This document shows positions 878 through 60,783 of a DNA stretch of 64,000 nt, in pieces. The notes under the pieces were generated by a model that was not told the DNA's origin, did not search any database, and saw nothing but the letters and a program-made list of their open reading frames with translations. The translations under genes were made by a program, and so were the position numbers. The stretch's first letter is position 1. Each line of letters starts with the position of its first letter. The DNA lies in IMG/VR virus record IMGVR_UViG_3300021479_000008, positions 55,003 to 119,002 of that record; one strand, 5' to 3'. The stretch is from a virus. Lineage: Duplodnaviria; Heunggongvirae; Uroviricota; Caudoviricetes.

Positions 878-890
878 TATATTATACAGA
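878..890 (-). promoter_or_regulatory. sigma70-type extended -10 promoter (minus-sense TTTCTGTATAATA), copy 1
   Basis: Plus strand tattatacagaaa. The reverse complement gives a perfect TGnTATAAT in the intergenic gap upstream of the 556..876 gene. Confidence 0.55.
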
Positions 891-914
891 AACGCGATTC
901 CTATTTCTTTGTTT

Positions 915-1499
915 TCAATTTACCCAAGTATATCCCGAAGTAATAGCTCCAATAGTACAACCAATTACTCCAAACTTCTTACCAAGTTCCTTTTGGGTGT
1001 ACTTACCAGTAGCATACAACTTACGGATCTTACGGACATCTTTGGCTGAAAGCTTAGCATTAGCGGCATCTTCACCAGACTTTTGTTGATGATGACCTGG
1101 ATATGATCCTCGTCCCTTTTTAATCATATCAGCTATATTCTGCTGCTGAGTACCCAACCACAAATGTTTCGGATTTACACAAGGCGGGTTATCACAGGAA
1201 TGGCATACGCAAAGTCTTCTTCCACTACGTTTACGAACACGTCCAATAAAAAATACATAAGCAGCGACATGGGCCAACTTTACCTTTTTCTCAGGCCAAC
1301 GAAATTGACCATAACCTTCACTAGATACACTTCCTTTCCATTCCCAACACTCGTTTGGACCACCAATTTCAACATGACTAAGAAAAGATATAAAACGAAA
1401 TAAACGAATAGAACGAGGATACATCTCCATCACTAAAGACTTGTTCTTAATAAATTGAAAATATGACGTATGTTGAATTCCCATAAACTTTCGCCTCAA
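915..1499 (-). CDS. HNH homing endonuclease
   Basis: Motifs GYGxF, HVAAY and CVCHSCDNPxCVNPxHLWLGTxxxN, as in HNH_3 homing endonucleases. Paralog of 62663..63175. Confidence 0.75.
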   Translation of the reverse strand: MRRKFMGIQHTSYFQFIKNKSLVMEMYPRSIRLFRFISFLSHVEIGGPNECWEWKGSVSSEGYGQFRWPEKKVKLAHVAAYVFFIGRVRKRSGRRLCVCHSCDNPPCVNPKHLWLGTQQQNIADMIKKGRGSYPGHHQQKSGEDAANAKLSAKDVRKIRKLYATGKYTQKELGKKFGVIGCTIGAITSGYTWVN

Positions 1500-1501
1500 C
1501 T

Positions 1502-1514
1502 ACATTATACAGAT
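1502..1514 (-). promoter_or_regulatory. extended -10 promoter copy 2 (minus-sense ATCTGTATAATGT)
   Basis: TGTATAAT about 20 nt upstream of the HNH gene ATG, followed by a GAGG RBS. Confidence 0.5.
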
Positions 1515-1525
1515 TACATAAAACA

Positions 1526-4468: not shown

Positions 4469-5604
4469 TAGTTCGTCTCCTGTTTACTTGTGACACACAA
4501 CCAATACTTCCCGGCTGTGATATAACTTACACCATGCTTTTGATCGACACGTACAACCATTCCTTGTTTTTTCGTTTTACTTACCAAGAAGCCAAACACA
4601 GGCTCTAAGCTGTCCAGAGGCCAATTTACCTTCAACGAAGCTGGTAGATGCTTTACTATCGGTAACCATTCCTTAAATCTAACACCCGGTAGATTAGTGG
4701 TTACCTGGAGGAGATTATCTCCCTTACTACCACGTACATTCACGACCCAGTCTTTTCTTTGTGCCCCTTGGAGATAATAACCAAGCCTCAACATGATGCG
4801 AGACATTCTACGCGACGAGGCGGTAAAACTGACTGGGAATGTTTCTGACTTCTTTGCGTTCTTGGTTATCTCGCGAAGGGGAAATTTCTCTATCGCGGCT
4901 TCACTGACTGGTTGCCACAATACTCCACGATCGAACTTCAGGACTACATACTTCCCTATCCAGTTTACACTTTTAAGTCCTGTCTCTGTTAGTAGACGTA
5001 TCATCTGGAGTGGGAACGGGATTGACGATTTAAGCTTACTCTTTTCTGGATCCCCCGTACCGAAATAATATACCCTGTCAGACGCGGCGTAGGCTTTGAT
5101 GGCTGCTGAACCTTTTCTAAGATAGACGCAGCTAAGGTACGGGACCATCGTATCACTGACAGCACAATTCTGTCCGCAGGTTAATAACGCGCGTACATCG
5201 TCGGTAATTGGTACAACACTTTCTTTTTCTTTGAGAATACGTTTGAGATCACCGTATCCGACTATGTCTTGCTGGGATTGGAATTCCGCGGAACGGGAAC
5301 CATGCTTAACGGTTAATTGTTTCTTATGGAAAGTGAACTCGAATAATGCTTTATTCTTGAGTGCTCTGGATGCATACACAAAGGGAGTGAAGAGTCTACG
5401 ATCTATAAAAAATTCACCTTCCCACTTTCCGTCTCCGTTTATACCTACTTCTCCCATGATATACGAAGCGACTGCAATCGTTATCTTCGATCCTTTTCCC
5501 CGTATCCATAAAAATTCACTGGAAGATAATCCTACCTTCTCGGGTATCAAGTCCAACAAGTGTAAAGCGGAAATTAAACGGCTACGTCTTATTGTCCACA
5601 TCAT
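4468..5604 (-). CDS. hypothetical protein (replication-module accessory, possible processivity factor)
   Basis: 378-aa ORF translationally coupled to the polymerase gene. No recognisable motif. A role as a processivity factor is suggested only by its size and position. Confidence 0.4.
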   Translation of the reverse strand: MMWTIRRSRLISALHLLDLIPEKVGLSSSEFLWIRGKGSKITIAVASYIMGEVGINGDGKWEGEFFIDRRLFTPFVYASRALKNKALFEFTFHKKQLTVKHGSRSAEFQSQQDIVGYGDLKRILKEKESVVPITDDVRALLTCGQNCAVSDTMVPYLSCVYLRKGSAAIKAYAASDRVYYFGTGDPEKSKLKSSIPFPLQMIRLLTETGLKSVNWIGKYVVLKFDRGVLWQPVSEAAIEKFPLREITKNAKKSETFPVSFTASSRRMSRIMLRLGYYLQGAQRKDWVVNVRGSKGDNLLQVTTNLPGVRFKEWLPIVKHLPASLKVNWPLDSLEPVFGFLVSKTKKQGMVVRVDQKHGVSYITAGKYWLCVTSKQETN

Positions 5605-6758
5605 AAATTTATTGTTGTTCCTACTACACTTTTATCTTTAGCCAAGGAAAGAAACTCAGCACGAACTGTTGGGTTTGTTTTGAATATTCCGTCAAGACTG
5701 GATGTCTCTACAAAACTGTCTGGTTGATTTACTCCACGCATTATCATACAATAATGTCTTCCAGTGACTATACATCCAGCTCCTTTGCATCCCTTAAGAG
5801 TCATAAGAGCTTGCGTAACATCTTGAGTAAACCGTTCTTGTATTACAGGGCGGCGTGCTAATATAGTAACCAGCCGCGACAATTTCGATAACCCCAATAC
5901 ACGTCCACCTTTACTTTTTGATGGTATATACGCAACTGTTACGTGATAATCAACTGGAAGCAGGTGATGGGGACACATCGAAAAAGCACGTATATTTTTA
6001 CTCAAGATCATTTGACTATTTGTGCAAGGAAAACCTTCCATTAAAATATCTTTTACTTGACCGTCTGTATCTTTCACCCCCTCAAATATCTCAGCATACG
6101 CACGTGCCACTCGTTTGGGAGTTGCCTTAAAATTCTCATCTTTCAAATTCAACTTAAAAGCTTGCTTCAAACCTTTGAAAATATAATGTACTCCTTTTTC
6201 GATATTTCTAATACCAAAAAACTTTGCTTTGGCTTTGTCTTGCTCGGCATGTAACTTTCTGTGACAAACATTACACAAGACTGCCAAATTTTCAATAGCA
6301 TTATTACCTAATTCTGTAGATATGTTTACTCCATCTCTATGGTGAACATGGAACTCACGCCTATGTAAATCTTTTTTAGTAATACCACAGCGTTCACAAA
6401 CATATCCGTAATGTTTTAACGCCCTTTTTCTATATCCAGTATATTCTTCTCTTCGCATTTCGCGTTGCTTGGGATCCTTAAACTGGAGAATGGCGTCTTG
6501 CTTTCTTTTTTCCATTAACTGGCGAGCTTTTTTCTTACCGAATTGTTGTTCATAACTTTTTCCTCTTGTAGCTATTCCGCGAATATATTCTAAATACTCG
6601 CAATCAAGTTTAGCTCCGGGGAATTTTTTCTTATACTTTCTACTACTAATACCATGCATATATCTCAAATGGGTATTAGTAATACGTTCAAACTTTTTCT
6701 TACACAACTTACAACGAACATATTTCTTTAATTTTAGATTCTCTAAATTAACTAGCAT
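5601..6758 (-). CDS. folE: HNH endonuclease domain fused to GTP cyclohydrolase I (FolE)
   Basis: C-terminal half has FolE motifs (FSMCPHHLLPV, YIPSKS, GLSKLSRLV, ARRPVIQERFT). N-terminal ~190 aa carries an HNH motif (HVHHRDG ... NLAVLCNVCHRKLH). No internal Met precedes the FolE core, so this is probably a true fusion. Confidence 0.75.
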   Translation of the reverse strand: MLVNLENLKLKKYVRCKLCKKKFERITNTHLRYMHGISSRKYKKKFPGAKLDCEYLEYIRGIATRGKSYEQQFGKKKARQLMEKRKQDAILQFKDPKQREMRREEYTGYRKRALKHYGYVCERCGITKKDLHRREFHVHHRDGVNISTELGNNAIENLAVLCNVCHRKLHAEQDKAKAKFFGIRNIEKGVHYIFKGLKQAFKLNLKDENFKATPKRVARAYAEIFEGVKDTDGQVKDILMEGFPCTNSQMILSKNIRAFSMCPHHLLPVDYHVTVAYIPSKSKGGRVLGLSKLSRLVTILARRPVIQERFTQDVTQALMTLKGCKGAGCIVTGRHYCMIMRGVNQPDSFVETSSLDGIFKTNPTVRAEFLSLAKDKSVVGTTINL

Positions 6759-7114
6759 ACGACTATGGCTCCGTTCTCGCCGTCTTCTGAGACTTCCACT
6801 GAATGTATCTTGTATGTTCCATCTGCTTCGACGAATGAGATTATGTCTTCAGCGATCATCTCACATGACTTTGCACCAAACTGGTGTATAGAACTTCCAC
6901 CGGAGAACAGCTCATCTACTCTTTCACGAAGAGTAATAAATTCAACGTCACGATCATTATGCCCTACTTGCACTGTTACCTTTACGTGGAACTCATGCCG
7001 ATGATTATCGCGCAAATACTTAACTTCACTGGGTGCATCCGGCCATCTATGAAAACCTACAAATCGTGTCGTACAGTACACATACGTTTTTGCGTCTAGC
7101 ATTATTTCCTCCAA
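6752..7114 (-). CDS. queD: QueD-like 6-carboxy-tetrahydropterin synthase (PTPS family)
   Basis: ~116-120 aa with the His-rich zinc motif (DNHRHEFHVKV) typical of QueD/PTPS. The likely true start is the ATG at 7102, with a GGAGG RBS and a promoter copy immediately upstream. Confidence 0.7.
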   Translation of the reverse strand: MEEIMLDAKTYVYCTTRFVGFHRWPDAPSEVKYLRDNHRHEFHVKVTVQVGHNDRDVEFITLRERVDELFSGGSSIHQFGAKSCEMIAEDIISFVEADGTYKIHSVEVSEDGENGAIVVC

Positions 7115-7116
7115 GC

Positions 7117-7129
7117 TTATTATACAGAA
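7117..7129 (-). promoter_or_regulatory. extended -10 promoter copy 3 (TTTCTGTATAATAAGCTTGGAGG cassette)
   Basis: Perfect TGTATAAT followed by AAGCTTGGAGG and the ATG of queD. The 23-nt cassette is identical to copy 4. Confidence 0.6.
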
Positions 7130-7138
7130 ATGGAAAAG

Positions 7139-11835: not shown

Positions 11836-11837
11836 AT

Positions 11838-11925
11838 CGTGTACGACAGGATTCGAACCTGTGGCTCACACGGTGTACAACTTTATTCCCCCATAGGCAG
11901 GTACTTCACCGTCCGAGTCTAGCCG
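11838..11925 (-). tRNA. tRNA-like element (T-arm plus acceptor signature; complete cloverleaf not resolved by hand)
   Basis: Minus-sense ACAGGTTCGAATCCTGTCGTACACG is a canonical T-stem/T-loop. It sits in a 200-nt gap free of ORFs. A second T-arm-like hairpin (ATGGAGTTCGATAATCCAT) lies about 100 nt upstream. Confidence 0.3.
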
Positions 11926-12031
11926 ATGACGTGTCATCGTTTCTATGTCAGGCTTTGGCCGCATGGATTATCGAACTCCATCCTCATCTCGCCCACATAC
12001 ACGCGCTCCAACTTTACAGGTCGGAGCAAGC

Positions 12032-48816: not shown

Positions 48817-49124
48817 CTTCGGCTCCTAGGACTCAAGATTCTTTCGTTGAACTGTTCATCGGTCTCACCGACTACACGTTGATGTTTTTGACTGTACCGT
48901 TCGCATTCTGGATGGAACTTACACCCTTGTCCAAATGGATGTGATTCGTGATGACAACCACAATCACACAAGTAAGAATGCTCAATCCCACATACTGAAC
49001 ACGAATACTTGATTGGGAGTGGGTTGTACGATGCTGTTTGCCTGCGTTTACGTGGTTTGAGACGAATACTTTTCCGTTTATAGTGGTTTTGGTGGTTGGA
49101 GTGGTTTTTACGTGCTAACGGCAT
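48813..49124 (-). CDS. Cys/His-rich zinc-finger-like protein; N-terminus encoded by the 59-bp repeat
   Basis: CSVCGIEHSYLCDCGCHHESHPFGQGCKFHPEC. The N-terminal NHQNHYKRKSIRLKPRKR is encoded by repeat copy B. Confidence 0.45.
   Translation of the reverse strand: MPLARKNHSNHQNHYKRKSIRLKPRKRRQTASYNPLPIKYSCSVCGIEHSYLCDCGCHHESHPFGQGCKFHPECERYSQKHQRVVGETDEQFNERILSPRSRR
49042..49100. repeat. 59-bp element, copy B (near-identical to 27391..27449)
   Basis: See copy A. Confidence 0.7.
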
Positions 49125-50023: not shown

Positions 50024-50235
50024 TGTGCCTCCCTACACTTAAATGGTTTATGCATCTGGACACGAATCGACTGCACTATTGTCTCAACTAAAAACTGTTT
50101 ATCTTCATTTGGAAGTGTAGACCAAGAGTAATGAGCTAAACGTGTACTTGTCAACTCATTAGAAACTATAGTTTCAGCAGCACTAGTTGCTGCTATCCTA
50201 AGACGTTTGTTGAATACATTATCCGGCAATATCAT
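50020..50235 (-). CDS. hypothetical small protein
   Basis: 71 aa. Confidence 0.3.
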   Translation of the reverse strand: MILPDNVFNKRLRIAATSAAETIVSNELTSTRLAHYSWSTLPNEDKQFLVETIVQSIRVQMHKPFKCREAQ

Positions 50236-51104
50236 TTCTCCTCCTTCGCTCTACGTACTAAAGTTCTCGGCCCATCGGGCGTCATCGAATACTGGATAAG
50301 GTTGTTCAACAACACCAACACTGCTTGGTAACGTCTACTATTATTCACTATTCGTCTTCCTGTTTGATATCCCAAATTGTCTATCTCAACTTCCTGTGAA
50401 GCGGCTTCGGATAAGACTGGAAGCAACTGACATACTGCTGGCAGGACTCCTTTCGAGCGTGCTGTCTTTTTCAGGCCTACGACTAACTTCCTGTCGAATG
50501 TTAGATGCCCTTCCGCGTCTAGACTGTACGGAGCGTTTAACTTGTCGACTTGCAGGACCAATTTCTTATCTTCTACCGTGACTGGTTTGAGCATGTCTTG
50601 CAGCATCGTGATAAAGCGATCGTACTTGTCGGTCAGCTTCTCACGTCTTACGGAAAGTTTTTTCTCTTTCCGGTTGAACAAGCGATTGACTTTACTGAAC
50701 AACGGTGGTTTATATGACTTCAATACTTTCTCATAAGATACAATTGCAACAGTGTACAATGGTAATTTGGCTAATGGAGATTTTATCTCTAAAGCTCTTG
50801 AACGAGCTCGCAGCATCTCATTCAAATACCCCAACTGACCACGACTGAATCCAACACCTGATTCTTTTTTGTACTTTACGTACACGTAGGCTTTATCGTA
50901 CCAGTCCAAGGCTCTGACTAAAACCTGGATACGCTGGCCTATGTCACTGGTAAGGTATCCTTTGTAGATACGTATGAGTTCTCCACGGTGTGGTCTCTTA
51001 GGTCTTGGAGGAGCTATCGGTTTTGCTGGACGTACTCGTTTCGTTCTTGTTTTCTTGCGTAGCATACGCCTCCTCTTCTTCAAGCTCAATCCCATTTCCA
51101 ACAA
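50232..51104 (-). CDS. hypothetical protein
   Basis: 290 aa with a very basic N-terminus. The true start is possibly internal. Confidence 0.4.
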   Translation of the reverse strand: MLEMGLSLKKRRRMLRKKTRTKRVRPAKPIAPPRPKRPHRGELIRIYKGYLTSDIGQRIQVLVRALDWYDKAYVYVKYKKESGVGFSRGQLGYLNEMLRARSRALEIKSPLAKLPLYTVAIVSYEKVLKSYKPPLFSKVNRLFNRKEKKLSVRREKLTDKYDRFITMLQDMLKPVTVEDKKLVLQVDKLNAPYSLDAEGHLTFDRKLVVGLKKTARSKGVLPAVCQLLPVLSEAASQEVEIDNLGYQTGRRIVNNSRRYQAVLVLLNNLIQYSMTPDGPRTLVRRAKEEK

Positions 51105-51312
51105 AGCCGACTACAATCTTTGTCAACAACTGAATCAACTCAAAGATCGTCAACTTGTATTTCTTTTCGACAGCTGCAATCCCATCGTGCAACTCAGATT
51201 CGGCTTTACACCTACGAATATAGTTCGTATGGCGAATTGAGACTGGTACTTTTCTATCGTGCAACGTAACCTCCTTTACGCTTTCGTATCTTCTCTTCTC
51301 GTCGCAAGACAC
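50998..51312 (-). CDS. hypothetical protein (overlaps both neighbours; uncertain)
   Basis: 104 aa. Large overlaps (107 nt downstream with 50232..51104, 59 nt upstream with 51254..51658) suggest a misassigned start here or in a neighbour. Confidence 0.25.
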   Translation of the reverse strand: MSCDEKRRYESVKEVTLHDRKVPVSIRHTNYIRRCKAESELHDGIAAVEKKYKLTIFELIQLLTKIVVGFVGNGIELEEEEAYATQENKNETSTSSKTDSSSKT

Positions 51313-51658
51313 GAAGCGCTTTCTTGATTATGTCAAGCTTGATTTTTCTCTTGTACCGGAGTGCCAACTTTTCAAGCGTATATTTCTTTTTCTTTATCCG
51401 CTTGAATATACGATCGGCAGCGGCTCTCACGTCACTGGGTACATGCTTGTAACGCTTCTCACGTTTCATGTGCTTGAATACTTGTTTCGCACACTCAACG
51501 TGATACGTTACTCGCGGTTGACGTGCTGACAACTGTCTGGCGTTCTCCGGCAACTGGGCCGGCCACGGATGGTAGCCAGCTTTTGGATCGACAACAGGAG
51601 CGTCGATAATTGGTTTGTTGCATAGATCGCAAATATACCAAGTACAGAAGCGAATCAT
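51254..51658 (-). CDS. hypothetical basic protein
   Basis: 134 aa with a Lys/Arg-rich C-terminus. Confidence 0.4.
   Translation of the reverse strand: MIRFCTWYICDLCNKPIIDAPVVDPKAGYHPWPAQLPENARQLSARQPRVTYHVECAKQVFKHMKREKRYKHVPSDVRAAADRIFKRIKKKKYTLEKLALRYKRKIKLDIIKKALRVLRREEKIRKRKGGYVAR
51358..51370. repeat. GAGTGCCAACTTT motif copy (variant)
   Basis: One mismatch from the 12-mer. Confidence 0.6.
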
Positions 51659-51949
51659 TATCTCTCCTATACGTCTCGCCCAAACACACGCTTGAATACT
51701 GACGGTTGTTCCTGTTTCTTGTACTCTTGTACAAACTCGGCAAACTGGGCCAACGCTTCACGCAAGAGAACAAAGTAAGCTTCCAACTTACCGGCTTGAT
51801 TCGTTCCCAACTTACGTATCTCATCTGGTGTCATAAGACTCCTTACTGTGCCAATAATGATTGTTTAATAAACGTTTCTAGGTAAGTGATTGACTGTACC
51901 ACTACAACTACCATTACTATCAACAAGAAAAATGGTACAACGATATCTT

Positions 51950-52258
51950 TCATAGCTTTACTCCTCTCATTTGATTTTGTAATTGTTCACGTGCTCGTTC
52001 TTCGGAAAATTTTGGATGAATACCACCTTTGGAACGAAGTGTTATACGACGTTGACGTTTCTCTTCGGGTGTCATGCTATTTCTACGTTCTAGTCTTTTT
52101 GCCTGAGAGTTAACTTTATCCTGTATCTGTTCATTGGTAAGCTTCACTTTCAGTAAACACTTTTTCAACTGACGCCGCAGACGATGCGTTAATACTGGTT
52201 TATGTATCTGGAAGTCAATGCTCAACTTAAGTTTTGATTTCTTTGCACGTTTATCCAT
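51950..52258 (-). CDS. hypothetical basic protein
   Basis: 102 aa with a strong GGAGGAGT RBS. Confidence 0.4.
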   Translation of the reverse strand: MDKRAKKSKLKLSIDFQIHKPVLTHRLRRQLKKCLLKVKLTNEQIQDKVNSQAKRLERRNSMTPEEKRQRRITLRSKGGIHPKFSEERAREQLQNQMRGVKL

Positions 52259-52509
52259 ACTCCTCCTTTATTCAACTGCTCCAGCTGCACTCAGTGATTG
52301 TCCGGCGGCCTTACATGCATTCTTTCTAATCGCAGACATCGTTTTGAATGCAGCTGGCGCACTGGAATGCGCCACGTGGGTAATCAATACGAAGCTGGTA
52401 TAGTCTTCATATCTTTCATTAAACGTCCTAGGATTCGTCCCACGATAATACTATTGGGTGTGGATCTTCGTAGTCTTCATCGTCGAAGTCGAAGGTTCAC
52501 AGAGACACC

Positions 52510-52866
52510 TCACTTTTCTTTAAGCGATTTCCGTTTTGACTGATCGATTGGCTCGATTTCCTTACCCACATACTTACGGGACATTCTGGCACAAAGATGG
52601 TAGAGAATCTTCGTTGCCCCTTCGAGTACATCGGCGACTTCGGTAATGCGATCGTAGTCCTTGTCGTTGACTTCTGTGGAAGGAATTTCGGTTTGACTTT
52701 CCAACTCTCTCGCGTCTTGCTGGATCTTTACCAGTTCGGTGAGAGCATTATCCAATCGCCGGACAATCTTGTCCGCTCGGTTGAGATACTTCTTGTCTGT
52801 CTTAGCTTTCGTTTCTTTTTCTTCTGTTTCCAATTTCTCGATTGCAACAACGTTTCCAGTCTTCAT
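52510..52866 (-). CDS. hypothetical protein
   Basis: 118 aa. Follows a 243-nt non-coding gap. Confidence 0.4.
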   Translation of the reverse strand: MKTGNVVAIEKLETEEKETKAKTDKKYLNRADKIVRRLDNALTELVKIQQDARELESQTEIPSTEVNDKDYDRITEVADVLEGATKILYHLCARMSRKYVGKEIEPIDQSKRKSLKEK

Positions 52867-53123
52867 TAGTTCTCCTTTTCGGTTGTGGTTTCGGTAACTT
52901 CTGTTTCTTCTACTGCAACTAAGAGCTCATTTACATCTGGCATGTGGGTACTGATTTCTTTTGCTAGTTTGGCACGTAGTTCACGATTCTCTTTCTGCAA
53001 CTTACGTACTTTACGATTCAACGCAGCAACTTGTTCAGCATACTTAAGTTCCCAATTAACTTCTGTTTTCTTTTTTACTGCCATGTTTCCTCCTTGGGTG
53101 GTATGCATTATACATCGACTCAA
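52866..53123 (-). CDS. hypothetical coiled-coil protein
   Basis: 85 aa with a heptad-like LKYAEQVAALNRKVRKLQKENRELRAKLAKE. Confidence 0.35.
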   Translation of the reverse strand: MSRCIMHTTQGGNMAVKKKTEVNWELKYAEQVAALNRKVRKLQKENRELRAKLAKEISTHMPDVNELLVAVEETEVTETTTEKEN

Positions 53124-53310
53124 CTCCCATCAATGCACACGTTGCTAATAACTCAAAATAGTGTCGTCTAGGATCCTCGCGTAAGCTTGCCTCCTTTACT
53201 AGTGTATGAACATAATCTTTTATATACTTCCGTTTCGGTGGACGTTCCAGTTTTACTTGTAGCTGGAGTAGGTTTACTATACCGACGTGGAAAGCTTCAC
53301 GCTTTAACAT
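53056..53310 (-). CDS. hypothetical small protein
   Basis: 84 aa. Confidence 0.3.
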   Translation of the reverse strand: MLKREAFHVGIVNLLQLQVKLERPPKRKYIKDYVHTLVKEASLREDPRRHYFELLATCALMGVESMYNAYHPRRKHGSKKENRS

Positions 53311-54022
53311 TTTTCTTTCCTTGTAACTCTTCTTTCGTTATAGAGAACAACACTTCAGCTTTCGGACCACCGTGTAGCCGCCAAGTCGTTCCATCGAAAC
53401 TAGGAACAAGACCCAACATCCACAACTGTACGGCTGGACCAAATGGGTACTGCCCACGTGGATGTTTGATATACTTCCACTTTGGTATCTTAAAAAACGA
53501 TCCAATATAGGCCCACACGCTGTCCCCCACGCTGGCCCACACGCTGTCCCTCACGCTGGCCCTCACGCTGGCCCACACGCTGGCCCTCATGCTGGCCCAC
53601 ACGCTGTCCCCCACGCTGGCCCTCACGCTGGCCCTCACGCTGTCCCATTTACGAAGCAACTGAATATGTTGCTTCGTAATTACTGGGGGAGTTATCTTGA
53701 ACGGATGAACAATTTGCTTCTTTACCAAAATCTTATACAGCTTCGTTTCCCACTTCTTGTGGACTGCTAACGCAGCCTCTTTGTGTTTTCCATTGAACCA
53801 CGCAGGAGTAATAGCCTGATCGACTTTCAACTCCCATATATCTGGAGCAAGGTAATTGTTATTCTTCGGACTTATCTCAACACGGGCAAATTCCATCAAC
53901 ATAGGATCAGAAGTTTCGTCTTTGAACTTGGCCAATTCCAAAAGATCGGTGTGCGAGTCAACTCCAAACTTCCACGTGACTGCAGCGTTTCTGGCAACGA
54001 TACAACTAAAGGCATTGCACAT
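53297..54022 (-). CDS. hypothetical protein with internal (W/R)ASV tetrapeptide repeat array
   Basis: 241 aa. The central 44 aa (SVRASVRASVGDSVWASMRASVWASV...) are encoded by a 12-bp tandem repeat. Confidence 0.45.
   Translation of the reverse strand: MCNAFSCIVARNAAVTWKFGVDSHTDLLELAKFKDETSDPMLMEFARVEISPKNNNYLAPDIWELKVDQAITPAWFNGKHKEAALAVHKKWETKLYKILVKKQIVHPFKITPPVITKQHIQLLRKWDSVRASVRASVGDSVWASMRASVWASVRASVRDSVWASVGDSVWAYIGSFFKIPKWKYIKHPRGQYPFGPAVQLWMLGLVPSFDGTTWRLHGGPKAEVLFSITKEELQGKKNVKA
53481..53618. repeat. tandem 12-bp repeat array (~11 copies of cacgctggccc(a/t) / cacgctgtccc(c/t))
   Basis: Near-perfect dodecanucleotide tandem repeats within the 53297..54022 CDS. Confidence 0.8.
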
Positions 54023-54357
54023 TACTTTGCTCCTTTGAATTTCTCATTCTTTTCAATGTTCAACGAAACCTGCCGTACTCGGTTTTCTTTTTCTAACCGC
54101 CGCTCGTACGACTTCCAGCGCTTGCCCCACAGCTTCCGCGCGACAACTTCCCACTCTTGGTGCCAACTTACGTTCGTTCTCTTGAAAGATGTGTAAAGAA
54201 ATTTCCATTCACTATCTTTCGGGTTGAATACCTTAAGTTTTTGCAACTTCATTGCACGCTTGATACGCTCACACAGTTTCTTTTCTTCCGTTTGCTTACT
54301 CTTGATCTCATCGCGCAATGACTTCAACTGGGAGATAACTTCTGTGGATAGCTTCAT
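54022..54357 (-). CDS. hypothetical protein
   Basis: 111 aa. Confidence 0.35.
   Translation of the reverse strand: MKLSTEVISQLKSLRDEIKSKQTEEKKLCERIKRAMKLQKLKVFNPKDSEWKFLYTSFKRTNVSWHQEWEVVARKLWGKRWKSYERRLEKENRVRQVSLNIEKNEKFKGAK
54169..54179. repeat. GGTGCCAACTT motif copy
   Basis: 11 of 12. Confidence 0.6.
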
Positions 54358-54644
54358 AGAAATATCCCTTCAGCTGCATCTAACGCTTTCGACGTATCTT
54401 GTTCACACCACAACTCATACGCTTCTTGGGCTGCTTTTTCTTTCTGCTTGAAAATACAACGCCGTATCGCCATACGCATGGAAACATCGACAAGATGGTG
54501 GGGAAGGATAATACGCAAGACGTCTTGGAATTCTTGTTTACCAAAACGCTGGAAACAATCCATCAATGTTTCGTTAGGGGCGACGGCATAGTTCTCTGTC
54601 AACGTCGCCAGCAGCTTCTTCTCCGCAAATGTTAGAGCTGGCAT
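54354..54644 (-). CDS. hypothetical protein
   Basis: 96 aa. Promoter copy 7 and an AGGAG RBS lie upstream. Confidence 0.4.
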   Translation of the reverse strand: MPALTFAEKKLLATLTENYAVAPNETLMDCFQRFGKQEFQDVLRIILPHHLVDVSMRMAIRRCIFKQKEKAAQEAYELWCEQDTSKALDAAEGIFL

Positions 54645-54659
54645 AATTCTCCTCTCAGT

Positions 54660-54672
54660 ATATTATACAGAT
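54660..54672 (-). promoter_or_regulatory. extended -10 promoter copy 7
   Basis: Minus-sense AATCTGTATAATATACTGAGAGGAGAATT-ATG. Confidence 0.5.
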
Positions 54673-54686
54673 TTGGTTGATCGTTT

Positions 54687-54983
54687 CTACATGTGGCAAT
54701 TGTCACAATACGAAAGCGAGAAATTCACCGACTCATCTGTATCGATATGCGTGGCTGGTTCACCGCACTTGTCGCATTGGGCACGGTGTATGTTCGGGTC
54801 AGCTGGAAACAACTTGACGGCTTTCTTGTGTTGCCAGCTCGCTTCGTGTGCTTTGACTTCCTCTTTTCGCAACATATAGTTGCAGGGATCACATTCGTAT
54901 ATCTCACCACCTGGCTCTTCGTGACTGACTCCATGTGGATGACCCGGTGGGAAATTGTCCATACGACCGACTAATCTTGTCAT
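54687..54983 (-). CDS. zinc-finger-like small protein
   Basis: CDPCNYM ... CDKCGEPATH ... CDNCH. Confidence 0.4.
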   Translation of the reverse strand: MTRLVGRMDNFPPGHPHGVSHEEPGGEIYECDPCNYMLRKEEVKAHEASWQHKKAVKLFPADPNIHRAQCDKCGEPATHIDTDESVNFSLSYCDNCHM

Positions 54984-55001
54984 CTTAAGCCTCCAGTATT
55001 G

Positions 55002-55400
55002 CTAACGTTTAGGCCAAATATATGGAAGATTATCTGGAACCTTCCACTTGAATTGGCTGTAGTACAGCTTATCTTTTCTCAACAGGTTACTTCTATGCGA
55101 ACGATGAAACTTCTTGTTTCCAACAAAAGGCGGAAAACGTACCTGGGTATTGCGTGGAATAGGTATCGTATTTTTATACCCACGGTGTTTCCACTCTTGA
55201 ATCATACAACGCAGGTAGTAACGAAGAGCTGGCTGATATCCTTTCCACATTTTCACAGCTGGATGATACTGCCAGCCTTTCGATTTACCTTGCAGCACGT
55301 TAAGTATCTGCATGGCTTCGACTCGTTGTTTTCCAAGTCTTTTGTTGTCTAGACACGCGGCTGACTTTTGAAAGCTAGCATACGGAAGAAATGTCTGCAC
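55002..55400 (-). CDS. possible pyrimidine-dimer DNA glycosylase (DenV-like); weak
   Basis: The N-terminal pattern LDNKRLGKQRVEAMQIL loosely resembles Pyr_excise LADQHLMAEYREL. Remote similarity only. Confidence 0.25.
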   Translation of the reverse strand: MQTFLPYASFQKSAACLDNKRLGKQRVEAMQILNVLQGKSKGWQYHPAVKMWKGYQPALRYYLRCMIQEWKHRGYKNTIPIPRNTQVRFPPFVGNKKFHRSHRSNLLRKDKLYYSQFKWKVPDNLPYIWPKR

Positions 55401-55798
55401 TAAGCCTCCAGAATGTCTTCGAACGTTTGTTGTTCCGGTACACGTTTACTAGAACGTTTTGGCAAAGGAGCGGGAACGTCTTGGTGCTCGTTTGCTATTT
55501 CGACTAACTGCTTAACGTATTTCTTCAATTTCTTTGCTACTATTTTCGTTTGTGCTGGAGTAAGGTTCTTGTACTTGAGAGACTTTTGTGCTACGTCGGT
55601 TAGAAAGTTCCCGTCGTAGCCATTGAATCCCATTCCATTGTCAACGATTGTGGCTTGTACTTCCTTCTCCATACTCGTCTGACGCTTGTACAAGCCCTGT
55701 AACATCTTCCAGATGATCTTGGAGTGTGGATAACCGTTTAGCTTACCTTCCGGTTTCTCCAAGACCATCCGGATGCGTTCTGCGTCGAAGTGGATCAT
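55400..55798 (-). CDS. hypothetical protein
   Basis: 132 aa. Confidence 0.4.
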   Translation of the reverse strand: MIHFDAERIRMVLEKPEGKLNGYPHSKIIWKMLQGLYKRQTSMEKEVQATIVDNGMGFNGYDGNFLTDVAQKSLKYKNLTPAQTKIVAKKLKKYVKQLVEIANEHQDVPAPLPKRSSKRVPEQQTFEDILEA

Positions 55799-56004
55799 CT
55801 CCTGTCTCGCTCCATTTCTGGTTCGGGTTCACGTAACATTTCTTCCAGCTCTTTTCGCAGGGAGTCTGGAAGGGAAGTATCGGATAACATACATCTGATC
55901 TCCGGCAGCGTCAATACACCCAAGACTTCTTCCATGTCTCCTCCTAGTACAACCAATGTGTTGGCCACGAATAACCACAACGGTTGCAATCCATCTGGAT
56001 ACAA
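55795..56004 (-). CDS. hypothetical small acidic protein
   Basis: 69 aa. One of several overlapping small ORFs in this stretch. Confidence 0.25.
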   Translation of the reverse strand: MYPDGLQPLWLFVANTLVVLGGDMEEVLGVLTLPEIRCMLSDTSLPDSLRKELEEMLREPEPEMERDRR

Positions 56005-56204
56005 CCACTGTCAGGTGTCGCGTAGCCGTTATCAACCAAGTCGTGTCCCTTCAACTTACACACTGTGTAGAACAACACACGAGACTTCAATGTATAATAA
56101 GCATCCACCACCCGGTAGAGTAGTGGATGCTTGAACAGGAACTCTTGATTGTGGTAGTCACGTTCCATCTCAGCGTAATCTGCATCCAATAGATTCGTGA
56201 TCAC
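55944..56204 (-). CDS. hypothetical small protein (GTG start)
   Basis: 86 aa. Begins 26 nt downstream of a GGTGCCAACTTT motif copy. Confidence 0.3.
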   Translation of the reverse strand: MITNLLDADYAEMERDYHNQEFLFKHPLLYRVVDAYYTLKSRVLFYTVCKLKGHDLVDNGYATPDSGCIQMDCNRCGYSWPTHWLY

Positions 56205-56206
56205 GA

Positions 56207-57682
56207 TTAGTTCACCGACGCTTTCTGCTCGGTGCCAACTTTACCGAGCACGTTTTCCATTGTCTCTTCTACGGCATGACGCTTGACGATCATGGTAATC
56301 ATGTCTTTCGATTCTTCCAACGTCATGTAAGGAGCGTGCAACCTTTTCAGTTCTGGCGACGTGGAGCTCATGTAAAGCATGTCTCCCTTCATCATCAACC
56401 CTTCGGCACCTTTCGTATTGATAATCGTCTTGGAATCTGCCAACGACGGCAACCGGAAGCTGAGACGCGCGGGGAAATTGGCTTTGATGCTTCCCTTGAT
56501 CTGCTTCACGTCTGGACGTTGAGTGGCCGCGATGCAATAGATACCACTCGCACGAGAACGAGCGACAACGGTGCTGAGCTTGTCACTGTTCATTTTCGCT
56601 TCACTACGTTCCAGACTCGGTCCCATCAGGTCCGCGAGTTCGTCGATCACGATGATAATGTACGGCATTTTCTTTTCTGCTGGCTGCCGTTCATTGTACT
56701 CGTGAATGTTGCGAACGCCCTGCATACCGAACTTATCCAGCCGGTCTTGTGTTTCGTCAATCGCATTCTGGAGATAGTTCATCGTGTGATACAGATTGGT
56801 CGCAATCGGATGCCACAGGTGCGGAAGAGCGTCAAAATGCTTGAACTCCACACCTTTCGTGTCGGAGATAATCAACTTGATTTCGTCCGGCGACATCGTC
56901 CAGCAAACCGTATCCACAACTGCGTGCAATAACGTAGACTTTCCGCCACCGGTCGTTCCGGCGATCAACAGGTGTGGAAGTGACGTCAAATCGTCCACGT
57001 ACGGCTCACCATCTGCCGTGATACCGAAGTTAACGGGAATCGGCAGGTGCCAATTTTTGTCTTCGGAATGATCACGAGCGTCTTGCATAAACTCCACGGC
57101 ATGACTCAACGTGTCGCGGAATTGCACGATCTGTCGCTCTTTGTTGGGAATAAAGAAACCGACTGCGGACTCACCGGGCATTCTCTTGATCAGAACGGCT
57201 TCGGCTCCGAGGGCTACGGCTACGTCTTTGTGGATACTTTCAAGGTGGGCGACTTTCGTTCTGGCGAGGGGAAGGTAGCGGTACGTGCTGATGATTGGAC
57301 CGACGCTGACTGGTCCGACAAACTGGGCGTGTTTGCCGAGGACTTCAATCTTTTCGTTGATTACATCGACAACTTCTTGCTGCTCGTCGGTGAGACGCTC
57401 TTTGGCTTTGGATGCTTTCTCGTTGCGGGACTTCGCACGAGCTGAACGACGGTCTTCCTTCTTTACCTCACGGTCGGCTTTGTCCAACTTCTCTTTTGCC
57501 GACGAGGACAACTTGACACGGGCAAGACGAGTACGATCACTGTGGGATTCTTCCCGACGCTTTCCTTTTCTGGCACCTTTGGTATGGACGCATGGCTTGT
57601 TCTTCCACGCAGAGCAGACTGGGCAAATTACGTTGAGGCTGACATCTTCCGACTTACGTGACTTTTTCATGTTTTTCTCCAC
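56207..57682 (-). CDS. FtsK/SpoIIIE-family DNA translocase-like ATPase with N-terminal zinc finger
   Basis: Walker A IAGTTGGGKSTLL and Walker B IIIVIDELADLM. N-terminal CPVCSAW..C. Confidence 0.65.
   Translation of the reverse strand: MEKNMKKSRKSEDVSLNVICPVCSAWKNKPCVHTKGARKGKRREESHSDRTRLARVKLSSSAKEKLDKADREVKKEDRRSARAKSRNEKASKAKERLTDEQQEVVDVINEKIEVLGKHAQFVGPVSVGPIISTYRYLPLARTKVAHLESIHKDVAVALGAEAVLIKRMPGESAVGFFIPNKERQIVQFRDTLSHAVEFMQDARDHSEDKNWHLPIPVNFGITADGEPYVDDLTSLPHLLIAGTTGGGKSTLLHAVVDTVCWTMSPDEIKLIISDTKGVEFKHFDALPHLWHPIATNLYHTMNYLQNAIDETQDRLDKFGMQGVRNIHEYNERQPAEKKMPYIIIVIDELADLMGPSLERSEAKMNSDKLSTVVARSRASGIYCIAATQRPDVKQIKGSIKANFPARLSFRLPSLADSKTIINTKGAEGLMMKGDMLYMSSTSPELKRLHAPYMTLEESKDMITMIVKRHAVEETMENVLGKVGTEQKASVN
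56231..56242. repeat. GGTGCCAACTTT motif copy (3' end of FtsK-like gene)
   Basis: Exact. Confidence 0.8.
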
Positions 57683-57698
57683 ACGACTGAATTTTGTA

Positions 57699-57920
57699 CT
57701 ACTGATTTCTCAACCCATCTACTATTTTCTGTTTGGCAATGGCTTCGGGCGAATCGGCTGGAACCCACTGCTGATTAACCCAACGCATCGAACAAATAGC
57801 GTCACGATGCTCGTACGAGAGTGTTGAGCCGGCAAAGAACACTCCACCACACTCCGGACAAAAACTTCGTTTGATAAGCTCCTGCAACTTCGGACTCAAC
57901 CGGTCTTCACTATACGTCAT
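57699..57920 (-). CDS. zinc-ribbon small protein
   Basis: CPECGGVFF. Confidence 0.35.
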   Translation of the reverse strand: MTYSEDRLSPKLQELIKRSFCPECGGVFFAGSTLSYEHRDAICSMRWVNQQWVPADSPEAIAKQKIVDGLRNQ

Positions 57921-57929
57921 ACGGACCTC

Positions 57930-58196
57930 CTACTTCGCGTTTTGAACGGCTTTAACAACCTGCTGCAACTCCAACCACAAAACTTTTGTTAACGTTCGGA
58001 GTTCACGAGAGCCGCCTTCTTCGTAACTTGTCATTAAACGTTCAATGGCTGCATCTGTCTGGGGAACATCGCACGTGAGTTTTTCAACGTTTCGAAGCAA
58101 GCGATTGTGAAACTCAACGACACGTTCCTGAGCGCATTGCTGTATGCGTTGCTGGATACGAGCATCAACACGCGGGTCCTGAACTAGACGCTCCAT
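57930..58196 (-). CDS. hypothetical small protein
   Basis: 88 aa. Confidence 0.35.
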   Translation of the reverse strand: MERLVQDPRVDARIQQRIQQCAQERVVEFHNRLLRNVEKLTCDVPQTDAAIERLMTSYEEGGSRELRTLTKVLWLELQQVVKAVQNAK

Positions 58197-58258
58197 AGAA
58201 ACACCTCACGTAAGAAATTTGTGCGTTTATAGTATTCGCACCCCACTCACCACAACAA

Positions 58259-58543
58259 CTACGCAGCGTGTTTCTTCGTCTTGGCCGGTGCCAACTTTTT
58301 CAACGCGAGCTGGATACGAACACGGTGGGGATTGTTCCGCTTTGCACCTTTGTTGTAGTGAATTGAAACGCAACGGTGACCCTTCTTCGAACCGCAACGC
58401 TTCTCGGGGCAATCCACCTTCAACGCGTCGACGATGGGAACAACCTTCTTGGTCTTTTTGCTGGTGGTTGACTTGGCGGACTTCACTGACTTCTTGCTCG
58501 ATCCAGACTTCGACGAATGCTTCGATTTGCTTGACATTTCCAT
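58259..58543 (-). CDS. basic Ser/Lys-rich DNA-binding-like protein (histone H1-like composition)
   Basis: SKSKHSSKSGSSKKSVKSAKSTTSKKTKK with an AAGGAG RBS. Confidence 0.4.
   Translation of the reverse strand: MEMSSKSKHSSKSGSSKKSVKSAKSTTSKKTKKVVPIVDALKVDCPEKRCGSKKGHRCVSIHYNKGAKRNNPHRVRIQLALKKLAPAKTKKHAA
58287..58298. repeat. GGTGCCAACTTT motif copy
   Basis: Exact. Confidence 0.8.
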
Positions 58544-58683
58544 TTTCTCCTTTTGATTTTTTTTTTGTTACTGCAACTTCTGTGCAAGGTTCACAAACAT
58601 CACTGCAAAATCTTCCTTCGTGATAAGACCATCAAAATACATCTCGATGATCTTATCTGCTTCACGTCTAATCTCTTCCTGCG

Positions 58684-58911
58684 TCACGCGGTGCCAACTT
58701 TCCCAACGAACACGCCGTTTGCCATCACGATACGACACTTGCCACTACGGGAACGGCTGCTGTTCCAACGTTTGGTGGTGGTATGTACACGAACGGCTCG
58801 CATCAACTTTTCCTCTTCACTCACATATTGCCGGCTAGGACGACTGTGGAGATTGCTCACTAACGCCGAAGTTAGTGCTTCTCCGTTTAGAGTGATATTG
58901 CTCAGGTCCAT
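58684..58911 (-). CDS. hypothetical small protein
   Basis: 75 aa. The 3' end is encoded by a GGTGCCAACTTT motif copy. A further ~50-aa ORF overlaps downstream in another frame. Confidence 0.3.
   Translation of the reverse strand: MDLSNITLNGEALTSALVSNLHSRPSRQYVSEEEKLMRAVRVHTTTKRWNSSRSRSGKCRIVMANGVFVGKVGTA
58690..58701. repeat. GGTGCCAACTTT motif copy
   Basis: Exact. Confidence 0.8.
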
Positions 58912-58937
58912 AACTCCTCCACGAAACTACGTGAGTC

Positions 58938-58950
58938 AGGTGCCAAACTT
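58938..58950. repeat. GGTGCCAAACTTT motif copy (1-nt insertion)
   Basis: Variant with an extra A. Lies in the gap 27 nt upstream of the next start. Confidence 0.6.
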
Positions 58951-59310
58951 TTACAGCTTCACAAAACGAATGAAACCGACGGTGGAAACTGTTCCACTAC
59001 CGCCCTGCAAACTTTCTGCATAGGCATACTTTCGACCGATTCTTGTAACGATTGCACGGCTCCACTTGTACAACGTCGAACCACAGTACGTAACTTTCAC
59101 GTGGTCTCCAACATTCAGTTTCTTGATCTCGGCAATCTTTTCTGCTTCGTATTCTGCATCGGCTTTTGCACGTTGTTTGTTTGTCATACTGCCTCCTATT
59201 TTCACGTTGATTTCTACATCCATATTCGCACGTTTAGGGCATCTTTTTCGGATGCCCTTTATACACTTCGTGCATGGTCTTATGGTAGTGGAATCGGGAA
59301 TTAAATACAA
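58951..59310 (-). CDS. hypothetical protein
   Basis: 119 aa. Confidence 0.4.
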   Translation of the reverse strand: MYLIPDSTTIRPCTKCIKGIRKRCPKRANMDVEINVKIGGSMTNKQRAKADAEYEAEKIAEIKKLNVGDHVKVTYCGSTLYKWSRAIVTRIGRKYAYAESLQGGSGTVSTVGFIRFVKL

Positions 59311-59395
59311 GAGAAAAAACGATTATTTTTCACTGTGTTTATAGGGGTCCGGAGTGATCGATAATTAAAAGCACTAGTGTTTACTGGAATTTCAG

Positions 59396-60661
59396 CTATT
59401 TCCCATCGACCACTTTCCGGAATGCCAATCCACTGCTTTTCGCGATGATACGGACTCGCGAATGCTGTTCAAGTTCTCCGGAAGCGATCATGTGGGCAAT
59501 CGGCTGCACGATCATCTTTTCGATGGTACGCCGCAAGTGGCGGGCACCATATCTTACATCCGTTCCTTCTTTCAACAACATATCTGTGGCAAGGTCTGTA
59601 CACTGGATGCGGATATCGTGTGCGATCAAACGCTGCTCAACATTACTAATTTCCATCTGCGTTATCTTCTGCAACGTGTCATGCAAAAGAGGATTAAATA
59701 CCTGTACCTCGTCAAGCCGGTTAAAGAATTCTGGGGTGAATTTCTGTCTCGCGGCTTCTATCGAGGCACGACGCATTTTCTTCTGTACATCCGGTGCCAA
59801 CTTTCCTTTCGCTTCTTTCAGGATATTCATTATGTCTTCCGAGCCAAGGTTTGACGTCATGATTACAACGGTATGGCTCAGATCGACGTCTTGATCGTCT
59901 ATACGAAGCGAGGCTCTGTCGAGTATTCCCATAAGCAACTTGTAGAGCAATACAGTTGCTTTCTCGATTTCGTCCAGCAGGAGAATACCCAACGGTTTTC
60001 CCGTGTTAGTGGAAAGGGAAATATTTTCGTCGGTAAACAACCTGTCCCCGAATTTGCGGAAGGAAAACATCGTTGCCATTTCTCCACAGTTGAATTTCAC
60101 CATCTTCGTACGACTGGAGAAATAGTACTCGGCTAATGCTTCTGCAATTCTCGTCTTGCCCACTCCGGTCGGACCGAGAAGCAGGTAAATGCCTCTCGGC
60201 TTGTACGGGTCACAGATATCGGCATCGATCTTGGCCACTAGATTGGCAAACGATTCCACGGCGTCGTCTTGACCGACTACACGATGCTTGAGAAATCGGA
60301 TTACCTTTTCTATTTTCTCCGACCGTTTCTCCGGATGAAGATGGATTGTCTTTCCGGTGAAGCTTACTGCTGGCAGTTCTTTTGGCAACGACGATGTCTT
60401 GGGTGCCAACTTTGCTTCTTTCTGCCGATACAGAATGTAATGACGAGCAAACTTCCGTTTTGGAGTTAGTCCACGATAGTGATCACGCATACACGACGGA
60501 GCAGTACAGAAATAGTTCTCTATCTTCCGCGGTATGCGTGGAATCTTATGGCGCTTACGACGTGGTTTGTTTTTCTTCATCTTCCCGGCTCCAGAAACCA
60601 ATACTTCATCAACGCTAAATATCCGTGATGAAGCTCTGGAGCGAATTTTCTCAACAACCAA
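59396..60661 (-). CDS. Clp-family AAA+ ATPase (ClpX/ClpA D2-like) chaperone
   Basis: VVGQDDAV, Walker A LLLGPTGVGKT, Walker B LLLDEIEKA, sensor and arginine-finger region GARHLRR. The basic N-terminal extension may not be translated (TTG start in the track; an ATG lies at about 60580). Confidence 0.6.
   Translation of the reverse strand: MVVEKIRSRASSRIFSVDEVLVSGAGKMKKNKPRRKRHKIPRIPRKIENYFCTAPSCMRDHYRGLTPKRKFARHYILYRQKEAKLAPKTSSLPKELPAVSFTGKTIHLHPEKRSEKIEKVIRFLKHRVVGQDDAVESFANLVAKIDADICDPYKPRGIYLLLGPTGVGKTRIAEALAEYYFSSRTKMVKFNCGEMATMFSFRKFGDRLFTDENISLSTNTGKPLGILLLDEIEKATVLLYKLLMGILDRASLRIDDQDVDLSHTVVIMTSNLGSEDIMNILKEAKGKLAPDVQKKMRRASIEAARQKFTPEFFNRLDEVQVFNPLLHDTLQKITQMEISNVEQRLIAHDIRIQCTDLATDMLLKEGTDVRYGARHLRRTIEKMIVQPIAHMIASGELEQHSRVRIIAKSSGLAFRKVVDGK
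59793..59804. repeat. GGTGCCAACTTT motif copy (in Clp ATPase gene)
   Basis: Exact. Confidence 0.8.
60402..60413. repeat. GGTGCCAACTTT motif copy (in Clp ATPase gene)
   Basis: Exact. Confidence 0.8.
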
Positions 60662-60770
60662 GCTTGCTTGTACTGTTCAAACTGTAGCCAATGCATACAA
60701 CCTCCATACATAGAAATCCCAGGCTTTGTGACGGCCTGGCTGATACACTTCGTGCATTGCTCATTATATG

Positions 60771-60783
60771 ATATTATACAGAA
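60771..60783 (-). promoter_or_regulatory. extended -10 promoter copy 8
   Basis: Minus-sense CGTTTCTGTATAATATCATATAAT, about 95 nt upstream of the Clp ATPase start. Confidence 0.5.

Follow-up and report, generated by a model that had tools for sequence, protein, structure and literature searches.

A 64,000-nucleotide (nt) stretch of phage DNA (the window; positions 55,003 to 119,002 of IMG/VR record IMGVR_UViG_3300021479_000008, and part of a metagenomic contig of about 119 kb from an uncultured phage) carries a short block that recurs between genes on the minus strand, which raises the question of whether this block is a promoter and which RNA polymerase would read it. An initial annotation had counted eight copies and described them as host-type extended -10 promoters. 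Searching the window with TCTGTATAAT confirmed the count, giving 8 minus-strand matches (881-890, 1504-1513, 7119-7128, 18093-18102, 22499-22508, 34293-34302, 54662-54671, and 60773-60782) compared to 0.18 expected and none on the plus strand, a number attained by none of 100 shuffled sequences; the annotated coordinates were off by 1 to 2 nt. The exact 13-mer TTTCTGTATAATA, not expected by chance even once, constitutes five of the eight copies (880, 7118, 18092, 34292, and 60772), while the three variant copies begin with CTTCTG (22498) or AATCTG (54661) or read AATCTGTATAATG (1503-1515). TATAAT alone was not over-represented (32 occurrences versus 33.9 expected), thus indicating that the excess belongs to the extended block and not to the hexamer. 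All window open reading frames (ORFs) of substance form a tightly packed array on the minus strand, and the copies occupy gaps between co-directional genes, of 36 to 68 nt for seven copies and 123 nt for the copy at 60772. The third and fourth copies had been reported to share a 23-nt block of promoter and ribosome-binding site, and positions 7108-7130 and 18082-18104 are indeed identical (repeat family D18, 100% identity).

The motif is also conserved in related phages. The relatives were represented by stretches of about 20 kb around PolA, the terminase, or the gene of a sigma-like protein described below, all from uncultured phages of about 120 kb, with PolA proteins 35 to 58% identical and a G+C content of 36 to 52%; metagenomes hold many related contigs of about 116 to 128 kb. 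These stretches contained about 25 further copies, in phages whose PolA is as little as 41% identical, on the coding strand and in short gaps, namely, in L001 (2149 and 9222), L002 (7205 and 12841), L003 (6938 and 12860), L004 (13595), L005 (2119, 6200, and 13593), L007 (10030 and 13069), L008 (1995), L009 (639), L014 (4698), L016 (4046 and 17418), L017 (1389 and 15825), L018 (11816 and 13991), and L021 (747 and 5279). Every examined relative except L006, the most distant one, carries the motif. In the window and the relatives together, [TC][TC]GTATAAT has 38 matches on the coding strand compared to two on the opposite one. The invariant core consists of G at -13 and TATAAT, usually followed by A, and it is preceded by TTTCT, AATCT, AACCT, or AATTT (TTTCC in L005 and L018); the AATCTG variant found at window position 54661 is the usual form in L002, L017, and L021.

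Not only the sequence but also the location of the copies is retained. In L001 to L005 and in L007, a copy lies directly past the polA stop codon or one gene further down, and in L018 one lies right after the terminase gene, matching the junction in the window. Overall, the shared junctions are those after polA, near the folE cluster, after an FtsK-like gene, after the terminase gene, and before endonuclease VII genes. A second assembly of the same phage provided one more exact copy (L023:3356), about 6 kb past the upper end of the window. Among cultured phages, megablast and tblastn with a structural gene returned no close relative, PolA being at most about 24% identical, and IMG/VR searches with the exact 23-mer and with the terminase were negative. 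We found no phage promoter with this motif sequence in the literature.

We then compared the copies with known promoter architectures. Sigma-70 holoenzyme requires a -35 element or a TGn extension besides the -10 hexamer, and a hexamer having neither is a poor substrate for the primary-sigma holoenzyme. Like extended -10 promoters (TGnTATAAT), the copies combine a perfect TATAAT, which is exact in all eight window copies and in all copies in relatives, with conserved sequence just upstream and no need for a -35 element. However, their TG directly abuts the hexamer and is thus out of register, lying at -14/-13 instead of -15/-14, its T is replaced by C in one lineage (TTTCCGTATAAT in L005 and L018), and conservation extends up to -18. 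The perfect TGnTATAAT ascribed to each copy is therefore not there: TGNTATAAT has only two matches in the window, at 33792 and 45804, and neither is a motif copy. Reading the hexamer in the other register (TGT plus ATAATA) in order to rescue the TGn was rejected by inspection, since the essential A at -11 is then lost.

There is no -35 element either. When 33 non-redundant copies were compared with TTGACA, allowing a spacing of 16 to 18 nt, the best match averaged 2.64 of 6 positions, a value indistinguishable from the 2.52 at random positions, and the information content of the aligned copies is limited to -18 to -6. A weaker peak further upstream, near -30, was rejected as a -35 element, as it turned out to be the TAA or TAG stop codon of the preceding gene. 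A promoter scan listed three copies (18092, 22498, and 54661), no other copy having even a passable -35, and marked all three "TG_before_second = no".

The sequence downstream of the hexamer is constrained as well. A Shine-Dalgarno core, where present, begins 6 nt past the hexamer in 11 of 22 copies (range, mostly 4 to 9), and a purine, usually the first Shine-Dalgarno base, is found 7 nt past the hexamer in 33 of 39 copies. About seven genes have no Shine-Dalgarno sequence, and their start codon lies 5 to 10 nt past the hexamer, with the base at position 7 falling within or close to it, a leaderless layout. Five of these are called starts, L016:4059 and L017:1402 (both endonuclease VII), L018:11830 (HNH), L002:12859, and L023:3368; of the other cases, L003:6951 shares its frame with a called ORF, and L001:2163 matches no called start. 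Both the Shine-Dalgarno and the start codon spacing are as predicted by a transcription start about 7 nt after a -10 hexamer, and this geometry argues independently, if indirectly, for promoter function and for the putative start site. Taken together with the exact -10 hexamer, the restriction to the coding strand, the intergenic placement, and the conservation in distant relatives, these data sustain the view that the copies are promoters fused to ribosome-binding sites, and the eight elements are very probably promoters.

A candidate for the protein reading the motif is encoded in the window itself. The first clue was a faint Sigma70_r2 mark on a relative's gene located after the flap endonuclease gene, to which the window gene at 13951-14688 (minus strand, 245 amino acids) is homologous. 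An alignment of 13 members gave weak Sigma70_r2 matches in 7 of them and a single PDB match, to region 2 of FliA (E = 0.1). An exhaustive profile search extended the family to 272 cluster representatives, and a profile built from 86 of them matched 80 PDB sequences at E ≤ 1, of which the 60 listed were all sigma factors, including FliA (9e-8), RpoD, SigA, RpoS, and SigH. Pfam Sigma70_r2 was matched by 40 of the 86 members (best, 1.3e-8) and Sigma70_r4, corresponding to region 4, by none (0/86); the C-terminal half forms a conserved helical domain without assigned fold. PHROGs contain no family for this protein, and a scan of genome contigs for the gene found no relative. Judging from the profile comparisons, the 245-amino-acid product is a divergent sigma-70-family protein.

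The gene of this sigma-like protein is itself preceded by a promoter of another type. In the window, TTGCAA-17-TACAAT lies ahead of it at 14765-14793 (minus strand), and a canonical -35/-10 pair precedes it in most genomes, three of which have a perfect TTGACA: L011 (TTGACA-17-TAGAAT), L007 (TTGACA-16-TATAAT), and L021 (TTGACA-17-TATAAT). The others read TTGCGA-17-TACAAT (L003 and L008), TTGACT-17-TATAAT (L006), TTGCAA-17-TATAAT (L022), and TTGCAT, about 18 nt, and TACAAT (L012). The leader between the window promoter and the sigma-like gene contains, immediately past the promoter and before the ribosome-binding site, a stem-loop with a T-run (14730-14759, minus strand), for which 17 pairs are predicted in three genomes, 4 of them with compensatory changes (kept in L003 and L011); L021 has a similar hairpin. 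This stem-loop could be an attenuator or a stabilizing 5' structure controlling production of the sigma-like protein. The portal gene also has a host-type promoter, TTGACA-17-TAGTAT with a correctly placed TG (44869-44897, minus strand). The region upstream of the portal gene (44847-45077, minus strand) further contains a terminator-like hairpin with a T-run (45027-45063) and two direct repeats of TAGGTAAGTCGG (44950-44961 and 44918-44929, minus strand).

The canonical pairs ahead of the sigma gene indicate that these phages have two distinct promoter classes, the motif being the second one. Given the further signals at 14765-14793 and 44869-44897, the transcription units are not defined by the eight copies alone, contrary to what had been suggested. 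Sites resembling intrinsic terminators showed no excess over shuffled sequences in the window. Nor does the mechanism first put forward, an extended -10 read by host sigma-70, agree with a TG that is out of register and not conserved, with the lack of a -35, and with the presence of separate canonical promoters. The motif is thus not the host-type extended -10 but a real, conserved motif specific to this phage lineage.

We propose that the copies are lineage-specific promoters made of a single block, t-T-T-C-T-G-T-A-T-A-A-T-a, at about -18 to -6, comprising a -10 hexamer without a -35 and without a correctly placed TG. Transcription would start at the purine about 7 nt past the hexamer, that is, either at the first Shine-Dalgarno base, giving a leader of 10 to 15 nt, or within or adjacent to the start codon, which would yield a leaderless mRNA. 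Every copy would then be a compact expression cassette re-initiating transcription within one long array of co-directional genes. The likeliest reader would be bacterial core RNA polymerase carrying the divergent phage sigma (13951-14688), which would be made first, from its canonical host-type -35/-10 promoter, resulting in a two-step cascade like that of phiEco32 gp36 or SPO1 gp28. To this complete reading, including the phage sigma as the reader, we assign a probability of about 0.5; promoter activity, the start site, and, above all, the link between the sigma-like protein and the motif are deduced from sequence. More tentatively, and at somewhat less than even odds, the family of about 270 cluster representatives, with no PHROG and a weak Pfam region 2 signal, may be an undescribed group of phage sigma factors that directs -35-independent transcription from the 13-nt TTTCTGTATAATA, its uncharacterized C-terminal domain reading TTTCTG, with starts placed exactly on the Shine-Dalgarno sequence or the start codon and minimal-leader or leaderless mRNAs throughout the clade of about 120-kb phages; the oriented motif aAAGTTGGCACCgg, described below, might then add a further level of directional control.

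Several observations weigh against the phage sigma as the reader. The core of the motif is the exact host-type -10 consensus and would as such be compatible with the host primary sigma. The copies show no concentration ahead of structural (late) genes; genes of mixed function follow them, and the portal gene is instead preceded by a canonical -35/-10 promoter. In L009, a motif copy replaces the canonical promoter directly ahead of the sigma gene, a layout that a host-read promoter fits more simply than an auto-activated one. L006 encodes the sigma-like protein (25% identity), and its 23 kb contain neither a motif copy nor a replacement motif that we could find. Foldseek returned nothing significant for the model of the sigma-like protein, the AlphaFold model itself being mediocre (pLDDT 67), and if the C-terminal half were a region 4, a -35 element would be expected.

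The core hexamer, perfect in all copies of all genomes, the L009 arrangement, and the variety of functional classes behind the copies, which do not form one temporal block, would all be accounted for if host RNA polymerase with its primary sigma alone read the motif, TATAAT doing most of the work and TTTCTG being a host-specific extension; the spacing to the presumed start is also that of sigma-70-type open complexes. Promoters with no -35 and no TG at -15/-14 are, however, weak or inactive with sigma-70 alone, and the same phages use a clear TTGACA-type -35 where recognition by the host is expected. Moreover, a block of 12 to 13 nt remains near-invariant in genomes ranging from 36 to 52% G+C, whereas ordinary host promoters vary, and sigma-70-like -35/-10 matches in the 1- to 60-kb region are rarer than in shuffled sequences (26 versus 40.6, 22 versus 32.7, and 19 versus 26.3). 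We thus consider recognition by the host sigma alone unlikely, though the likeliest of the alternatives. A phage helper that binds TTTCTG or makes the -35 dispensable for the host primary sigma, in the manner of T4 MotA/AsiA or Thermus phage P23-45 gp39/gp76, would explain a -10 consensus combined with a conserved upstream block and no -35, as well as the lack of clustering before late genes, and the 46- to 59-kb block does contain many small genes without assigned function. However, no candidate helper was identified, the sigma-like protein being the only transcription protein recognized, and the phage sigma would then have to serve a different set of promoters, while the intergenic regions yielded no second conserved promoter-like motif that could serve it. 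This makes the helper decidedly improbable.

Two further explanations do not rest on promoter function. The strictly coding-strand orientation, the A/U-richness of the block, the Shine-Dalgarno core most often 6 nt past the hexamer, and the start codon right behind the block where there is no Shine-Dalgarno sequence would also suit a signal acting at the RNA level, such as a translational enhancer, an operator for an RNA-binding regulator following the logic of T4 RegA, or an RNA processing site. Nothing about such a signal would lead one to expect the -10 consensus TATAAT as the invariant core of about 35 copies. We found neither a conserved secondary structure nor an Rfam family, and the copy at 60772 has no real gene start adjacent to it, so that we regard an RNA signal as very unlikely. 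We give still less credence to the view that the repeats are mainly recombination or homing sites, located at gene boundaries, where modules are exchanged or endonucleases find their targets, with any promoter activity being incidental. The 23-nt identity between 7108-7130 and 18082-18104, the motif copies flanking an inserted HNH gene, and the endonuclease genes that often follow the motif in relatives speak for such sites, but they leave unexplained why the copies are strictly oriented, keep a fixed distance from translation starts, and coincide with the -10 consensus; in addition, the repeats are too short for efficient homologous recombination, and the position at the same junction is kept in genomes without endonuclease genes there.

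Single-block promoters read by the phage sigma would have parallels in other phages, phiEco32 providing the closest one on record. In phiEco32, gp36 reads middle and late promoters consisting of one element, tAATGTAtA, which have no -35 and start 6 to 8 bp downstream (PMC8948821). Here as there, one highly conserved block in the -10 region, without a -35, goes together with a phage-encoded protein of the sigma-70 family, and both blocks contain the hexamer TGTATA; the start 6 to 8 bp downstream, measured in phiEco32, is a prediction here. In contrast, our consensus TTTCTGTATAATA is longer and includes the full TATAAT, hhalign detected no significant relationship between the sigma-like family and gp36 (E, 0.11), with the sigma-motif pairing coming from sequence only, and the lineage, a set of uncultured phages of about 120 kb, is unrelated to phiEco32. 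T4 late promoters, TATAAATA, are read by gp55, and T4 homing endonuclease genes often carry promoters of their own. These late promoters resemble our motif in consisting of a -10 element only, with an 8-nt core, near gene starts scattered over the genome, and in having, as proposed here, a minimal phage sigma as the reader. Our motif differs in its core, GTATAATA, and in the 5-nt upstream extension, its copies are not restricted to late genes, it is not known to depend on a clamp, and hhalign gave no significant match between the sigma-like family and gp55 (E, 0.012; probability, 3.6%). The motif and the sigma-like protein may therefore work like the gp36 and gp55 systems while belonging to neither family. 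Bacillus phage SPO1 uses a sigma cascade of gp28 followed by gp33/34, acting on bipartite promoters with a -35 and a -10. The proposed cascade would share with it a sigma gene expressed early from a host-type promoter, whose product redirects the core polymerase to phage-specific promoters; the SPO1 promoters, however, are bipartite with other sequences, and so far only a single sigma-like gene and a single motif class have come to light here.

Phage-specific promoters together with phage sigma factors are a classic device for timing phage gene expression, and the arrangement proposed here is not a new principle. To our knowledge, only a handful of phage promoter/sigma pairs have been worked out, and sequence alone yields here a candidate pair for a whole clade, consisting of the motif, a predicted start, a candidate gene for the sigma, and a host-type promoter from which its expression would begin. 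This candidate cascade can be tested in vitro without culturing the host and could provide a compact, orthogonal promoter/sigma pair. The motif also corrects gene starts and marks inserted genes, such as that of an HNH endonuclease, that carry their own expression signal.

Looking at the individual copies, all on the minus strand, the one at 880-892 (TTTCTGTATAATA) is followed by GAGGA beginning 6 nt past the hexamer and by the ATG (864) of a 102-amino-acid gene; the 22-mer TTTCTGTATAATATACATGAGG at this copy is identical to that of the post-polA copy in L003 (12860) and to that in L008 (1995). The diverged copy AATCTGTATAATG (1503-1515) lies directly 3' of the polA stop codon and is followed by an HNH gene (ATG, 1484; end, 915). 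At 7118-7130, TTTCTGTATAATA with AAGCTTGGAGG precedes the ATG (7102) of a queD-like gene, followed by folE and polA; the L002 copy at 7205 likewise precedes a small gene upstream of folE, and the L001 copy at 2149 is in the same region. The same combination, TTTCTGTATAATA with AAGCTTGGAGG, is found at 18092-18104, just past the DnaB-like helicase gene and ahead of the ATG (18074) of a 61-amino-acid gene. That ATG is the real start of the ORF listed as 17889-18122, which traverses the motif copy and had rightly been called over-extended, a correction that merely concerns the mechanical ORF list.

The copy CTTCTGTATAATA at 22498-22510 comes after a 1,605-amino-acid tail-region gene and before the ATG (22477) of a 75-amino-acid gene, followed by a helicase gene (20649-22271). 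Within the structural gene block, TTTCTGTATAATA at 34292-34304 precedes the ATG (34271) of a 254-amino-acid protein, and in the small-gene block, AATCTGTATAATA at 54661-54673 precedes the ATG (54644) of a 96-amino-acid gene. The last copy, TTTCTGTATAATA at 60772-60784, lies 47 nt past the stop codon of the terminase large-subunit gene and departs from the rule, stated by the initial annotation for every copy, of a gene start directly downstream: the adjacent ATG, 8 nt after the hexamer, opens an ORF of only 37 codons, and a leader of about 190 nt with small ORFs separates the copy from the ClpX-like gene (ATG, 60580). Its counterpart at the same junction in L018 (11816) is located 7 nt ahead of an HNH gene start. 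The 15-mer ATGCACGAAGTGTAT occurs once in each of the noncoding stretches flanking the ClpX-like gene (60743-60757 and 59261-59275, minus strand), both times with a short hairpin behind it; the copy at 60743-60757 is within the leader downstream of the motif at 60772.

Two of the motif copies had been assigned to homing endonuclease genes, and this assignment survives for one of them. The product of the gene at 915-1484 has a weak HNH_3 match (7e-4, below the Pfam cutoff) and is 47% identical to the product of 62663-63175, which matches HNH PHROG families at 1e-28 to 1e-13, making it a credible HNH endonuclease. In L001, L002, L003, and L007, polA is followed by one motif copy and then, directly or via a small gene, by a gene of 172 to 175 amino acids, the HNH gene being absent there; the corresponding 174-amino-acid product of the window (28-552) is 51% identical to its L003 ortholog. 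The order in the window is polA, the diverged copy at 1503, the HNH gene, the consensus copy at 880, and the 102-amino-acid gene. The HNH gene thus has the appearance of an insertion, its own motif copy having either come with it or been acquired, and the shortness and self-containedness of the cassette would let it travel with inserted genes such as this one. Endonuclease VII and HNH genes behind a motif copy are likewise found in relatives. The second assignment (33507-34277) was not borne out: at its C terminus, the product of 33507-34271 weakly resembles T7 endonuclease I (PDB, E = 0.03) and resolvase/endonuclease PHROG families, without a recognizable HNH or GIY-YIG domain. Elsewhere, the GTP cyclohydrolase I ORF (5601-6758, minus strand) encodes an N-terminal HNH domain (residues 121 to 172), while FolE of the relatives is plain (188 to 211 amino acids), which suggests that an endonuclease gene was fused to, or inserted ahead of, folE.

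Besides these, the recognizable genes of the window encode PolA fused to a UDG-like domain, FolE, a QueD-like protein, a radical-SAM protein, a methyltransferase, a DnaB-like helicase, a primase, a flap endonuclease, the portal protein, the terminase, ClpX-like and FtsK-like ATPases, a GroES-like protein, and several HNH proteins. A second oriented motif, aAAGTTGGCACCgg, was also noticed: AAGTTGGCACC has 13 matches with at most one mismatch (8 exact) compared to 0.79 expected, all on the minus strand, and 10 of the 13 fall within the 49.7- to 61.5-kb block (49689-61456); positions include 26723, 35089, 51360, and 57046. Four copies of aAAGTTGGCACCgg are present in the closest relative, L016 (12248-16404), and none in L017 or L018. 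As the copies lie inside ORFs in all three frames, they would constitute a signal at the DNA or RNA level. Identification of GTTGGCAC as the -24 element of a sigma-54 promoter was rejected, since neither TTGC nor TGC occurs at the spacing that such a promoter requires and all three reading frames are represented among the ORFs containing the copies.

The adjacent genes 22546-27363 and 27466-32292 (minus strand) have 1,605 and 1,608 codons and encode one A/Q/L-rich, tape-measure-like product and one G/T/V-rich, tail-protein-like product without mutual similarity. Both were considered as a phage RNA polymerase and rejected, having no Pfam, PHROG, or PDB match and no DxDGD motif. Two long stretches are without a convincing ORF, 11818-12031 and 35367-35690 (minus strand); the second begins with a GC hairpin, and the first ends in GGTTCGAATCC, which resembles a tRNA T arm, although ARAGORN and Rfam report nothing there, nor did tRNA and Rfam scans of the window as a whole. 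An 84-nt direct repeat (85% identical) is found between the two genes of about 1,600 codons (27366-27449) and at the start of a 103-amino-acid ORF (49017-49100), both copies encoding the basic peptide NHQNHxKRKSIRLKPRKR. Finally, about 14 tandem copies of the 12-nt unit GGCCCACACGCT (plus strand) lie within a 241-amino-acid ORF at 53486-53671, where they give rise to a four-residue peptide repeat.

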